DNA of 64,000 nt from Escherichia coli (GCF_024223415.1 NZ_CP100502.1); one strand, 5' to 3'; shown: positions 9,727-21,140, counted from the stretch's first letter. Numbers and translations: made by a program. Notes: generated by a model from the letters alone, not told the origin.

Positions 9727-10057
9727 GGAAGTCGCCGCCGGCTCCGCTTTACCCGGCCATGCGGGGCATGGCCTTGTGGGTTTTCAGTTATGTGGCCACC
9801 GTGTCGTGTGCGGGCTGTGCCGTGCCTCCATCTTAGCCGGGCTGGCAGGGATGCAAGGGTACGCTTCGCCGCTGCGGTCACCCGGTCCCTCCTTCCCGTC
9901 TGCCGTGATTTTCCGGTCGTTCACCCGCTCAGATTTCGCGGTCTCACCCTCCAACTCCCGCCAGCCGTGTGCGTCAGGCTGCGGCTTCCCTTGCGCCCTG
10001 TGCATCCCCGCCTTATCGCCCGGCTTTTATGGAGGCACGGCACCGCCCGGTGTCGCG
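9727..10057 (+). repeat. Family-A ssi/Frpo-like repeat, copy A1
   Basis: seq: about 330 nt nearly identical to 16711..17041, GC-rich and hairpin-rich, ending about 30 nt before a gene start. known: IncI1 and F leading regions carry ssi/Frpo single-strand promoters. Confidence 0.6.
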
Positions 10058-10085
10058 GAATATGTGAACAACGGAGGAATACATC

Positions 10086-10511
10086 ATGCAATATGCGAAA
10101 CCTGTCACTCTGAATGTTGAAGAGTGCGACCGTCTGTTTTTTCTGCCTTACCTGTTTGGCCAGGATTTTCTGTATGTCGAAGCGTCTGTGTACGCGCTGG
10201 CGAAAAAAATGATGCCGGAATATGAAGGCGGATTCTGGCACTTCATCCGCCTGCCGGACGGTGGCGGCTACATGATGCCGGATGGCGACCGTTTCCACAT
10301 AGTGAACGGTGCAAACTGGTTTGACCGTACCGTGAGTGCTGATGCCTGCGGCATCATTCTGACTTCCCTTGTGATTAACCGCCAGTTGTGGCTGTACCAC
10401 GACAGCGGTGATGCAGGACTGACCCAGCTTTACCGGATGCGCGATGCGCAGTTGTGGCGTCACATCGAATTTCACCCTGAATGCAACGCGATTTACGCGG
10501 CTCTGGACTGA
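10086..10511 (+). CDS. klcA: KlcA/ArdB-family antirestriction protein
   Basis: seq: 141 aa, '[51 protein letters not shown]' resembles KlcA/ArdB from memory; GGAGG RBS. Confidence 0.65.
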
Positions 10512-10557
10512 TTAACGGACGGGGCGGCAATGCCGCCCCTGTAAAGGAGACGAGAAA

Positions 10558-10980
10558 ATGTACTGTACTGTTAAAGAAATTATCCGCGAAGTGCTGGATA
10601 CAGACGTGCCGGACAGTGAATGCGTTTTTGCCGTGGTGCTGACCCGTGGGGATGTGCGTCACATAGCCCAGGACTGGAACCTGTCAGACGATGAGCTGGA
10701 AACCGTCATGCAGCGGCTGGACGATGCCTTTGAGCATGGTGCGGATGTCAGCGTTGTTCACGACGTTGTTCGTGAACTGATGGAAGAAAAGCGCGCCAGC
10801 CGTCATGTGACAGTCCCGGCGATGATGCTGGAAAAAGTGATGGCGCTGGCAGGCAGTGAAATGAAGCGCCTGTATGCCGTCGGAAGTGAGAACGGGGGCG
10901 ACGGTGACGCATTCGTCAGGGAGGAACGCGAAGCAATGGACGTTGTGTTACAGGCGCTGGACGGGGAGACGATGTCATGA
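10558..10980 (+). CDS. Hypothetical protein, paralog of the 8413..8847 ORF
   Basis: seq: AAGGAG RBS; shared blocks with the 8413 ORF (see there). Confidence 0.5.
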   Translation: MYCTVKEIIREVLDTDVPDSECVFAVVLTRGDVRHIAQDWNLSDDELETVMQRLDDAFEHGADVSVVHDVVRELMEEKRASRHVTVPAMMLEKVMALAGSEMKRLYAVGSENGGDGDAFVREEREAMDVVLQALDGETMS

Positions 10981-11168
10981 ATATCAGCACAGAAACCCGC
11001 GAAATTCTGCGTAATTACAGGGCCGTGATTAATGCGCGGCGTCGTGAAATGGGGCAGAAACCGCTCACCACCGCGCAGATTGTTGATGAAATCTGCGATT
11101 TTGTGGCGAATCAGCAGGCGGTTTTCCTGGGCGGTCACTACATCTTACAGGGCAGCAGAAACAGGTGA
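10977..11168 (+). CDS. Hypothetical small protein
   Basis: seq: 63-aa ORF overlapping the preceding stop (ATGA). Confidence 0.3.
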   Translation: MNISTETREILRNYRAVINARRREMGQKPLTTAQIVDEICDFVANQQAVFLGGHYILQGSRNR

Positions 11169-11199
11169 TACAGGGGCAGGCGGTGGAGGCCGCCTGTCA

Positions 11200-11905
11200 G
11201 CCCGCGCGAAAACCCCTGGCAGGCTGACGCCTGCCGGAAGGGAAGCGGGCCACGCTGGCGCGTCGCCCGTTACCCTTCCCGTCTGTGATGTGTCTGACTC
11301 AGGAGTGTTTCTTTCTTATGTTATGGAACTGTTCCTGATGTTGTTGTTCCTTTATCTGCTGCTCTGATTCTGACTACTGCAGTGTTGTTCTGTCTGCCGG
11401 GCGCACCTTCGGCTCCCGGCTGCCTGGCGGCATCCGGTCGTCAGGCCCGACTCCGACAGGCAGCTGCTGGCGCACCCGCCAGTCTCCGCCGAACCCGCTG
11501 GCGCGGTTTCGGGCTGTCGCTACGGTCCGATGCGTGAAAACCCGGGCTTGCAGCGACCGTTCCGGTCGCGCCGCCTCTGTCGCGCCGTGACCTGCGCTCC
11601 CTGCACACCTGACGGTGTGTGAGGAAACTGCGCCTGATGGCGCAGCAGTCCTCCCTCCTGCCGCCACCTCTGCGGCCTGTTTCCCGCTGTGGACTTTCCG
11701 GGGGGCAGACGTAACCCCCTCCCGTTCCATCTGTCCAGGGTGAGATGCACCGGCCACAAAATTTTTAGCCATGAACCCGGCAAAAAATTTTGCGTCCGCC
11801 CCCGGACAGCTGTCCCGTGAGGCGGTAAACGGGCCCCCATCGGAAAGGTCCACTGCGGGGAGAAACCCCTGTGAAGTGGACGGCAGGAGGAGCTTTCGCT
11901 CCTCT
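11200..11905 (+). repeat. Family-B ssi/Frpo-like repeat, copy B1
   Basis: seq: long GC-rich repeat shared with 17600..18250 and partly with 20815..21140 (e.g. 'caccttcggctcccggctgcctggcggcatccggtcgtcaggcccgactccgacaggcag'); ends about 70 nt before ssb. Confidence 0.55.
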
Positions 11906-11973
11906 GAAGGGGCACATGAACGTCCCGTCTCCGGTATCCGGTTTATCTCACATCTTTCAGTCAGGAGGTTCTT

Positions 11974-12501
11974 ATGAGTGCACGTGGTATCAACAAGGTC
12001 ATCCTCGTCGGGCGTCTGGGCAATGATCCGGAGGTCCGTTACATCCCCAACGGTGGCGCAGTGGCAAACCTGCAGGTGGCCACGTCAGAAAGCTGGCGCG
12101 ACAAACAGACGGGGGAGATGCGGGAGCAGACGGAATGGCACCGTGTTGTGCTGTTCGGCAAGCTCGCGGAAGTGGCAGGTGAATATCTGCGCAAGGGCGC
12201 GCAGGTCTACATCGAGGGGCAACTCCGTACCCGTAGCTGGGACGACAACGGCATCACCCGCTACATCACTGAAATTCTTGTTAAGACCACGGGCACCATG
12301 CAGATGCTGGGGAGTGCACCACAGCAGAACGCTCAGGCGCAACCGAAGCCTCAGCAGAATGGGCAGCCACAGAGTGCTGACGCGACGAAAAAAGGTGGCG
12401 CGAAAACGAAAGGCCGTGGACGTAAGGCCGCGCAGCCCGAGCCTCAGCCGCAAACGCCGGAGGGGGAGGATTACGGGTTTTCAGACGACATCCCGTTCTG
12501 A
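11974..12501 (+). CDS. ssb: Plasmid single-stranded DNA-binding protein
   Basis: seq: '[48 protein letters not shown]...' is the canonical SSB OB-fold, with Gln/Pro-rich tail ending 'DIPF'; AGGAGG RBS. Confidence 0.95.
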
Positions 12502-12558
12502 TCGGGCTGACTGTGACAACCGCCCCGCCCTGTGCGGGGCATCACCGGAGATATGAGG

Positions 12559-20097: not shown

Positions 20098-20109
20098 TGA
20101 GAGCCAAAA

Positions 20110-20134
20110 GGCCCGGCAAAATGCCGGGCCTTTT
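20110..20134 (+). terminator. Rho-independent terminator after rpn
   Basis: seq: perfect 9-bp stem 'ggcccggca'/'tgccgggcc', 3-nt loop, then TTTT. Confidence 0.7.
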
Positions 20135-20158
20135 GCCAGCAGGAGCAGAGAAAACAGT

Positions 20159-20329
20159 ATGACGATTGCAGAACGTCTTATACAGAAAGGTTTTGAAAAA
20201 GGTGCTCTTGAAGTGGCGCGGGAAATAGCCTGCCGGCTTCGGGATATGGGCTGGACGCCGGAACGGATTCAGGAGGCCACGGGACTTTCCGGTGAAGAAC
20301 TGAAAAAACTGTTTCCTGATGAGCAGTAG
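20159..20329 (+). CDS. Free-standing small protein resembling the Rpn C-terminal tail (RpnS-like)
   Basis: seq: 56 aa 'MTIAERLIQKGFEKGALEVAREIACRLRDMGWTPERIQEATGLSGEELKKLFPDEQ' aligns with the rpn tail 'MTLAERLKQEG...GALQKAREIARELRNAGMPAAQICQLTGLSEAELKNITH'; AGGAG upstream; below the track's 60-aa cutoff. Confidence 0.5.
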   Translation: MTIAERLIQKGFEKGALEVAREIACRLRDMGWTPERIQEATGLSGEELKKLFPDEQ

Positions 20330-20359
20330 CCTGGCATTCTGCCAGGCTGTGAACCACGC

Positions 20360-20611
20360 TCACACATCCTCTGCCGTTTCCCCCAGTTCATTTTCCAGAC
20401 GCCTGATGATATCTGCCTTGCGCATCCCCTGCATGTGAGGCAGCAGGTCACGGACTGAAAGTGCCTGGGTGGTCCTCCAGACGGTGACATCCACCTGTTC
20501 CGCATTTTCCCAGGCGTGCCATGTTCTCTGTGTCACGCCAAATTCTCTGGCCGCTTTTTCGCGTGACCAGAGCATGCTTTTTCGCCAGATTCGCAGTTCC
20601 CAGCCGGTCAT
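20360..20611 (-). CDS. Small helix-turn-helix regulator
   Basis: seq: 83 aa; 'REKAAREFGVTQRTWHAWEN' looks like an HTH; one of only two minus-strand genes in the leading region. Confidence 0.5.
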   Translation of the reverse strand: MTGWELRIWRKSMLWSREKAAREFGVTQRTWHAWENAEQVDVTVWRTTQALSVRDLLPHMQGMRKADIIRRLENELGETAEDV

Positions 20612-20625
20612 AAAACACCTTTGAA

Positions 20626-20712
20626 AAAGTGAAAAAACTTCACTTTATTTTATCACCATAACCACCAAATCAGCGCGAAAAATAAGTGTGAAAAAGTGAA
20701 GGAATTTCACTT
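20626..20712. promoter_or_regulatory. Two palindromic operator-like sites AAGTGAA-N5-TTCACTT upstream of the HTH gene
   Basis: seq: palindromes at 20627..20645 and 20694..20712. Confidence 0.4.
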
Positions 20713-20814
20713 TTTTTGATTGTAGGTGTCGTGCTGTTTTCTCTGTTTTCACCTGTGCGGGAGTGGTGTGCCAGTGACCACCACATGCCATTGTTGCGCC
20801 GTCGTTTTTCTTCA

Positions 20815-21140
20815 GTCGCGCCGGATGCGGCGCTCCCTGCACACCTTACGGTGTGTAAGGCCACTGCGCCTGATGGCGCAGCTGTCTCTGCCTGTCTGCC
20901 GCCGCACTGCGGCCTGTTCTCCGCAGATGGACTTTCCGGGGGTACATACACGACCACATCCCGTTTCAGTCGTCCAGGGGAGAGATGTACCAGCCACAAA
21001 ACTTTTTGCCGCAGGCGTCAAAAACTTTTGCGTCTGCCCCCGGACAACTGCCCCGTGACGTGGTGAGCGTCCCCCGTCGGAAAGGTCCACTGCGGGGAAA
21101 TCCCCGAAGACCCGGACGGCAGAAGGAGCTTCGCTCCTCC
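20815..21140 (+). repeat. Family-B ssi/Frpo-like repeat, copy B3 (5'-truncated)
   Basis: seq: matches the 3' two-thirds of B1/B2 from 'ggcgctccctgcacaccttacggtgtgtaagg' onward. Confidence 0.5.

Follow-up and report, generated by a model that had tools for sequence, protein, structure and literature searches.

Five hairpin repeats of two families as putative single-strand promoters in the leading region of an IncI1/Iγ-type plasmid

The repeats and their genetic setting

The window considered here, meaning the whole stretch of DNA that was analysed, comprises 64,000 nucleotides of Escherichia coli sequence (GCF_024223415.1, NZ_CP100502.1; one strand, with coordinates counted from its first letter). 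Between 9727 and 21140 it contains five copies of two long GC-rich repeat families, each copy lying immediately upstream of a block of plus-strand genes, and a reading made from the sequence alone had proposed these repeats as ssi/Frpo single-strand promoters. Self-alignment confirmed that there are five copies in two families, and no additional copy was found in the 64-kb window. The two copies of family A, at 9725-10078 and 16709-17062, are 96.6% identical over 355 aligned nucleotides (nt; E 1e-169), within about 20 nt of the limits given for them earlier (9727-10057 and 16711-17041). Family B has two long copies, at 11383-11904 and 17722-18245, which align over 529 nt at 89%, together with a detached 65-nt piece farther upstream (11192-11255 and 17599-17662, 80% identity); the length of about 650 nt first given for this family is roughly right for these two loci, although the similarity there is interrupted by indels. 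The third copy, at 20812-21143, is 80-82% identical over about 335 nt and does not carry the extra upstream block common to the other two B loci.

The gene blocks begin close to the repeats. From the repeat ends drawn by the sequence-only reading we measured 29-69 nt to the first gene, in good agreement with its figure of 30 to 70 nt. The two family A copies lie 29 nt before a klcA/ardB-like antirestriction gene (10086-10511, plus strand; labelled 'antirestriction protein' in the 99.7%-identical NZ_CP094989) and 29 nt before the antirestriction gene ardA (17070-17570, plus strand; ArdA in NZ_CP094989, ColIb-P9, and pESBL). The family B copies precede the plasmid ssb gene by 69 nt (11974-12501, plus strand; NCBIfam NF010292, 384 bits), an open reading frame (ORF) for a hypothetical protein of 144 amino acids (aa) by 49 nt (18299-18733, plus strand), and an ORF of the DUF4942 family by 48 nt (21188-22039, plus strand). 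Among these blocks is the classic early anti-defence and establishment set of klcA, ssb, psiB, psiA, and ardA.

Positions 9000-22500 match many conjugative plasmids of Enterobacteriaceae at 99.7% identity over 99% of the length. Those plasmids are typed as IncI-gamma/K1 or IncI1, with MOBP relaxase and MPF_I, and by this similarity the window represents an IncI1/Iγ-type plasmid's leading region. Its gene order agrees with ColIb-P9 and pESBL-EA11, starting with umuDC/dinI-like genes on the minus strand, DUF1281, a hypothetical ORF, and a 227-aa methylase, continuing through the klcA-like antirestriction gene, DUF1380, and a hypothetical ORF to ssb, DUF905, a parB-like gene, psiB, and psiA, and ending with ardA, a hypothetical ORF, an Rpn-family gene, DUF4942, the origin of transfer (oriT), nikA, and nikB.

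Published single-strand elements allowed the two families to be named. Our reference set consisted of ColIb-P9 ssi1-3, F ssiD, and the Frpo' candidates in supplementary file 4 of Samuel et al. 2024, searched against the window with BLAST, and all reference ssi matches to family B fell on the minus strand. On that strand, ssi3 (11577-11907) is 99.7% identical over 331 nt to ColIb-P9 'Frpo3' (AJ238399:11381-11711), and ssi2 (17922-18247), 5' of the 18299-18733 ORF, is 99.1% identical over 326 nt to ColIb-P9 'Frpo2'. For ssi1 (20813-21141), 5' of the DUF4942 gene, 329 of 329 positions are identical to ColIb-P9 'Frpo1' (AJ238399:1459-1787); this third copy had been described as truncated, yet the whole published 329-nt ssi1 matches at 100%, and by that alignment it is a complete ssi1. 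The three copies are 99.2-99.5% identical to their pESBL counterparts (99.2% for ssi3), and F ssiD, the original Frpo, matches the central 80-116 nt of each at 74-76%. The proposed kinship of family B with F Frpo and ColIb-P9 ssi was thus borne out by alignment, at 99.1-100% to ssi1-3 and colinear in multiple alignments with F Frpo1 and Frpo2; on these matches, family B is the set of class 1 (Frpo-type) single-strand promoters ssi1-3. The ssi3 operon is made up of ssb-(DUF905)-parB-like-psiB-psiA (content per PMC10104558).

Family A is a different matter. BLAST found no similarity between it and any Frpo/ssi query, with cross-matches to non-Frpo candidates only, and it is 82% identical to candidate Frpo' 4 of Samuel et al. 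2024. A close precedent comes from the work of Wen et al. (Nucleic Acids Research 2025) on pESBL, in which donors were eliminated and transcription was followed by RNA-seq at 15-60 min and by 5' rapid amplification of cDNA ends; six operons were induced, each preceded by a large stem-loop in single-stranded DNA, and these were sorted into class 1 (ssi1-3 and Frpo), class 2 (the klcA and ardA hairpins), and class 3 (the M.EcoGIX hairpin) (PMC12672017). A 2026 preprint renames the classes ssp1-3 and reports that F ssp2 stalls complementary-strand synthesis until UvrD resolves it (bioRxiv 10.64898/2026.01.09.698686). Copy 1 of family A (9725-10078, minus strand), directly 5' of the klcA/ardB-like gene and with its main hairpin at about 9812-10049, is 95.8% identical to the pESBL sequence upstream of klcA and 97.8% identical to F ssp2, which lies upstream of the F klcA homologue. 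Copy 2 (16709-17062, minus strand), directly 5' of ardA, is 97.2% identical to the pESBL sequence upstream of ardA. By these matches, family A is the class 2 (ssp2) type of single-strand promoter, distinct from Frpo. The sequence-only reading therefore stands as to single-strand promoters, with family B corresponding to ColIb-P9 ssi1-3 and family A to a class 2 promoter, and falls short in having taken family A for Frpo-like, which by sequence it is not.

The two class 2 copies also share plasmid-specific variants: GGCAGGGATG is found in the two copies here, GGCGTTGATG in the two of pESBL (7010-7370 and 13956-14316). Their outer flanks are locus-specific. The shared variants suggest gene conversion between copies that lie 7 kb apart.

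The direction of transfer can be read from oriT, whose core (22596-22648, minus strand) combines a 17-bp inverted repeat (22609-22625 / 22632-22648) with the IncP/IncI-type nick motif CACATCCTG|TCCCG. The minus strand upstream of nikA reads GGCAATTGTAATAGCGTC...GACGGTATTACAATTGCACATCCTG|TCCCG, with the nick motif (CATCCTG|T) 8 nt after the inverted repeat. We take the nick to fall between 22601 and 22600, following the site attributed to Furuya & Komano 1991 and the IncP consensus. The AJ238399 position of ssi1 and of ssi2 equals 22600 minus the window coordinate, and from this numbering the first base of AJ238399 is no more than one or two bases from the predicted nick, and the record follows the window minus strand; at ssi3 there is an offset of 688 nt between the two numberings because the psiA-ardA cargo differs from that of ColIb-P9. 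With the nick motif placed on the minus strand, at 22596-22609, the minus strand is the one transferred, 5'-first toward lower coordinates, into the leading region, and it therefore serves as template for every plus-strand gene in the region, including the five downstream blocks. These plus-strand blocks are placed between the repeats and oriT, nikAB lies beyond oriT, and the strand assignment of the sequence-only reading is upheld by the nick motif and the position of nikAB.

Folding, strand bias, and candidate promoter boxes

Each copy was folded as DNA on both strands and compared by z score with dinucleotide shuffles, alongside three coding controls. On the minus strand the folds range from -91 to -105 kcal/mol. 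In class 1 they reach -104.8 kcal/mol (z -11.1) at ssi3, -102.1 kcal/mol (z -9.1) at ssi2, and -101.9 kcal/mol (z -9.0) at ssi1, compared with -87.8, -90.2, and -85.6 on the plus strand; both class 2 copies fold at -91.2 kcal/mol (z -5.2 for copy 1 and -5.7 for copy 2), compared with -80.7 and -79.9. The repeats are thus rich in hairpins, as had been claimed, and on the minus strand all five fold far better than shuffled sequence (z -5.2 to -11.1); the coding controls gave z scores of +1.2, -3.0, and -2.6. The plus strand is weaker by 10.5-17 kcal/mol in all five copies (by 12-17 in class 1), and no consistent strand bias appeared in the three coding controls. When the first 24 kb were scanned with a 300-nt sliding window, a minus-strand advantage of at least 10 kcal/mol was seen at the five copies only.

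Comparison among homologues indicates that the stems themselves are maintained. For class 1 we used eight sequences (the three copies here, F Frpo1/2, and three divergent published candidates), in which 88.8% of cells are paired and 23 pairs have changed on both sides, compared with 13.1 +/- 2.2 in shuffles; none of 500 shuffles reached this count, and slid controls gave 6-8. The six class 2 sequences are 92.2% paired, with 19 compensated pairs compared with 7.0 +/- 1.9, again matched by none of 500 shuffles, and with slid controls of 1-6. G·T pairs of class 1 are kept in 6-7 of the 8 homologues, and the opposite strand would have C·A mismatches in their place. Selection acts on the hairpins, and the bias indicates the transferred strand.

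Within the class 2 hairpin, candidate sigma-70 boxes lie on the 3' arm. In copy 1 (9830-9856, minus strand) TTGCAT (9856-9851) and TAAGAT (9835-9830) are separated by a 15-nt spacer, and the same boxes recur at 16815-16841 in copy 2. Predicted folds place the central AAG of the candidate -10 box in a 3x3 mismatch bubble opposite AAA (10026-10028). The pattern TTGnnn-15-TAnnnT is kept in three divergent homologues, and the adjoining helix GCCCGGCT/AGCCGGGC shows no variation among the six sequences. In the loop-to-base direction the template runs on into the gene, and class 2 transcripts are therefore predicted to start near A10037 and A17022, with leaders of about 49 nt.

In class 1 the arrangement is more symmetrical, a single mismatch bubble having TGGAC boxes about 17-18 nt off on both arms. 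At ssi3 these boxes are at 11740-11732 on the 3' arm and at 11855-11847 on the 5' arm, with the weak -10 candidates TACGTC / TTTACC. Either direction of initiation would yield sense transcripts; loop-to-base initiation is predicted to start at about 11836-11845, and base-to-loop initiation on the low-coordinate arm, upstream of the apex at about 11772. An A/T-rich stem at the apex sits where an UP element would be expected for the loop-to-base direction, and in the functional Frpo2-acrIIA4 construct of Samuel et al. the 3'-arm promoter is present in full and the 5'-arm box is without its partner. Together, the construct and the apex stem weakly favour loop-to-base initiation toward the gene in class 1.

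Ordinary promoters do not offer themselves in place of the hairpins. Upstream of the five first genes (klcA, ssb, ardA, and the ORFs at 18299 and 21188) a consensus scan returned no sigma-70 site on the plus strand, a result that fits dependence on hairpin promoters, with the caveat that the scan is a stringent one. The consensus scan likewise returned no sigma-70 site inside the repeats on either strand, and the boxes described above are sub-consensus.

Promoter activity on the incoming strand and its alternatives

We consider it very probable, from the combined analysis, that the five repeats are promoters active only while the plasmid is single-stranded. In such a scheme, conjugation would bring the minus strand into the recipient 5'-first from the nick at about 22600, and each repeat on the entering strand would snap back into a long imperfect hairpin. 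The stem would mimic a double-stranded promoter, its -35-like and -10-like boxes accompanied by a mismatch bubble at -10, so that host sigma-70 RNA polymerase could transcribe the adjacent genes directly from the incoming strand, and complementary-strand synthesis would then remove the hairpins and turn the promoters off. Class 1 would drive ssb-psiB-psiA, the 18299 block, and the DUF4942 block, and class 2 would drive klcA and ardA. Early and transient transcription in recipients, sensitive to rifampicin and confined to single-stranded templates, has been reported for the 99%-identical class 1 copies of pESBL (PMC12672017) and for F Frpo1/2 (PMC9849209).

Several points weigh against this account. 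Promoter function in the window is transferred from near-identical homologues, and the mapped starts, the priming of the complementary strand by class 1 RNA, and the UvrD-resolved roadblock of class 2 are likewise taken from the literature; the exact boxes and start sites given here are predictions. The class 1 boxes are weak, the best being of the TGGACA / TACGTC type, and two opposite arrangements fit about equally well. In class 2, the 15-nt spacer on the non-template arm is short for sigma-70, with 19 nt on the opposite arm. Covariation between G-C and A-T pairs, moreover, cannot by itself tell which strand folds, nor whether the folded molecule is DNA or RNA.

A tenable but less probable account is that the repeats serve mainly as ssi sites, supplying primers for the complementary strand (or, in class 2, stalling its synthesis), with gene expression as a side effect. 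Frpo was indeed first isolated as the priming signal ssiD, and its transcripts prime DNA polymerase III in vitro (PMC7690428); in F, transcription-dependent early conversion is reported at ssp1/Frpo and a roadblock at ssp2 (bioRxiv 10.64898/2026.01.09.698686), and class 2 copy 1 shares 97.8% of its sequence with that F element. Yet every copy is followed, after 30-70 nt, by a gene block that has the same strand as its template, a placement that speaks for a role in gene expression, and the documented priming or stalling role is compatible with promoter activity, making it an added function instead of a true alternative. It is highly improbable, by comparison, that the structures act as RNA 5'-leaders of ordinary mRNAs (attenuators or translational regulators) or encode small proteins. 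The palindromes do fold in plus-sense RNA too, and mechanically called ORFs cover the repeats and are sometimes annotated by PGAP, which places hypothetical proteins on them. However, an Rfam scan of the whole window at gathering thresholds matched none of the repeats, a blank to be expected because the repeats are DNA elements; the plus strand folds 10.5-17 kcal/mol worse; and, if the class 2 start predicted near 10037 is correct, only the last part of the hairpin would be transcribed. The ORFs that the sequence-only reading had dismissed as spurious do exist mechanically, but neither their frame nor their extent is kept across copies or homologues. Those inside family B vary in extent from copy to copy, a 73-aa minus-strand ORF of family A is frame-shifted in the 82%-identical homologue, and no RefSeq feature underlies family A in 30 records sampled from at least 5000 matching plasmids. 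A coding explanation of the repeats was rejected for this lack of conservation between copies and homologues.

The least probable explanation, in our estimate, is that the repeats are passive dispersed duplications, left as scars by recombination or marking where modules join in a mosaic leading region, whose hairpins are merely GC-rich palindromes. Recombination between such repeats does occur: in a natural IncI plasmid, an exchange between Frpo repeats deleted the intervening 9.7-kb segment (PMC3817090), and the plasmid-specific variants common to both class 2 copies suggest gene conversion. Passive duplication is contradicted, however, by compensatory changes that preserve the stems across divergent homologues and by the transferred-strand folding bias in all five copies. 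Family A, moreover, is conserved across several genera, with at least 5000 plasmid records matching it at 90% identity or above, and the repeats hold a constant position with respect to the genes in F, ColIb-P9, and pESBL.

If the repeats are single-strand promoters as we propose, they would let a resistance plasmid express ArdA, KlcA, the SOS inhibitor PsiB, and SSB within minutes of entry. Such early expression would precede host defences, which would make hairpin promoters central to plasmid spread. The repeat system is already known and was here rediscovered, family B having been established since 1997-1999 and family A having been a candidate in 2024 that was shown experimentally in 2025-2026. 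The elements are unannotated in public records, and gene callers put spurious ORFs on them; a reading of the sequence alone still recovered both classes and the correct strand.

Neighbouring elements and known systems

At two of the class 1 loci the shared sequence extends beyond the published promoter. A GC-rich block at 11383-11576, outside the published ssi3, has a second copy at 17722-17921 upstream of ssi2, and within them 11404-11516 and 17749-17861 are identical at 113 of 113 positions, while the adjacent promoters differ by 13-18% (82-87% identity). This 113-nt block is absent at ssi1. Its z score on folding is only about -3 on either strand, and with a cut-off of 95% identity the 177-nt segment 11400-11576 has at least 11,875 matches, spread over at least 5000 plasmids. 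In F, a non-homologous but equally GC-rich block precedes both Frpo copies. The block lies on the side from which complementary-strand synthesis arrives and could act as a brake or priming site that extends the time class 1 spends single-stranded, as reported for ssp2. We regard it as rather doubtful, however, that the repeated unit is larger than the promoter in the sense that the GC-rich block constitutes a separate single-strand DNA element.

The inventory of five repeats is right in all five of its elements and omits at least one more probable element of the same kind, at about 7150-7495. This segment (7150-7495, minus strand) lies directly 5' of an M.EcoGIX-type methylase gene of 227 aa (7496-8179; NCBIfam NF010253, 500 bits), folds at -109.4 kcal/mol (z about -7), and has a mean column identity of 98% in a three-way alignment with F and ColIb-P9. 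Wen et al. 2025 used a folding criterion of below -75 kcal/mol per 300 nt, and the only segments besides the repeats that fall below it are 7150-7495 and a stretch inside the parB-like gene. The segment at 7150-7495 is probably the published class 3 (ssp3) promoter, an assignment made by position and folding threshold only. One of its small hairpins shows a compensatory change, GGGCACC..GGTGCCC here and GGGCGCC..GGCGCCC in F. The hypothetical ORF that RefSeq places at 7108-7419 has its N-terminal half in another frame in F, owing to a 1-nt indel, and is probably not a real gene. The stretch inside the parB-like gene (13201-13500) folds at -80 kcal/mol on the minus strand and -77 kcal/mol on the plus strand; it is coding and without strand bias, and its fold is probably incidental.

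A smaller hairpin of about 130 nt lies at 6004-6142 on the minus strand, 47 nt before the ATG of the DUF1281 gene (6189). It has a class-2-like core, TTGCAT-15-TAACGT...GGCACGG, of which a 38-mer recurs unchanged in F, ColIb-P9, and NZ_CP094989; over the segment as a whole, identity to pESBL is 99.5%. Shuffled sequence folds about as well (z -0.9). As a candidate for the published class 3 promoter the hairpin was rejected, failing the -75 kcal/mol criterion that 7150-7495 passes. On our reading it lies outside the six published promoters and may be a seventh, weak promoter or a relic.

Other features of the region were noted in passing. A terminator-like hairpin, GGCGGGG-TAAAT-CCCCGCC followed by TTTTT, lies at 9676-9694 on the plus strand, between the end of the ORF at 8847-9668 and class 2 copy 1; it would shield the klcA unit from transcription arriving from upstream. 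The AT-rich sequences at 20612-20653 and 20679-20720 form direct repeats of 79% identity, and each contains the inverted repeat AAGTGAA...TTCACTT; they adjoin a minus-strand gene for a helix-turn-helix regulator and may be operator sites. The Rfam scan gave only two matches, both elsewhere in the window and above their gathering scores: the sok antitoxin RNA at 30490-30647 (plus strand, 134 bits), beside a Hok/Gef gene, and the AgrB antisense RNA at 31272-31359 (minus strand, 55 bits), near a DinQ-like toxin gene.

Our findings fit into a family of known systems, ColIb-P9 among them. Its ssi1-3 (Bates et al. 1999; Nasim et al. 2004) are arranged from oriT in the order seen for family B here and precede the same genes, and that plasmid differs from the window essentially only by its psiA-ardA cargo; this interval (15978-16607) holds a 209-aa hypothetical ORF here and an insertion sequence-associated gene of the TnpB family in ColIb-P9 (32482-33657). 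The class 2 elements of pESBL likewise occur in two copies, 5' of klcA and ardA, with no difference of substance, whereas F has a single ssp2, before the klcA homologue only. F Frpo1 (ssiD) and Frpo2 (Masai & Arai 1997; Couturier et al. 2023) share with family B the hairpin architecture, the apex AAAATTTT stem, the CTGTCCGGGGG / CCCTGGAC helix, the flanking small hairpins, and the covarying stem, and F Frpo2 also precedes ssb. The gene-proximal arm, in contrast, cannot be aligned between them, and the 5' arm carries TTGAGA in the F type and GTGGAC in the IncI copies. The third class described by Wen et al. 2025 (ssp3) has its likeness in the structured segment 5' of the same 227-aa methylase gene, which is without sequence similarity to families A or B.

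More distant parallels exist outside conjugation. Hairpins in single-stranded DNA also make up the minus-strand origins of the filamentous phages f1/M13 and the sso (single-strand origins) found in rolling-circle plasmids, where they mimic duplex promoters with -35 and -10 elements and recruit host RNA polymerase. The analogy between sso and Frpo has been drawn in a review (PMC7690428). Those origins yield only short primers for DNA synthesis, whereas the elements described here would, by our analysis, also give rise to mRNAs for the genes downstream.

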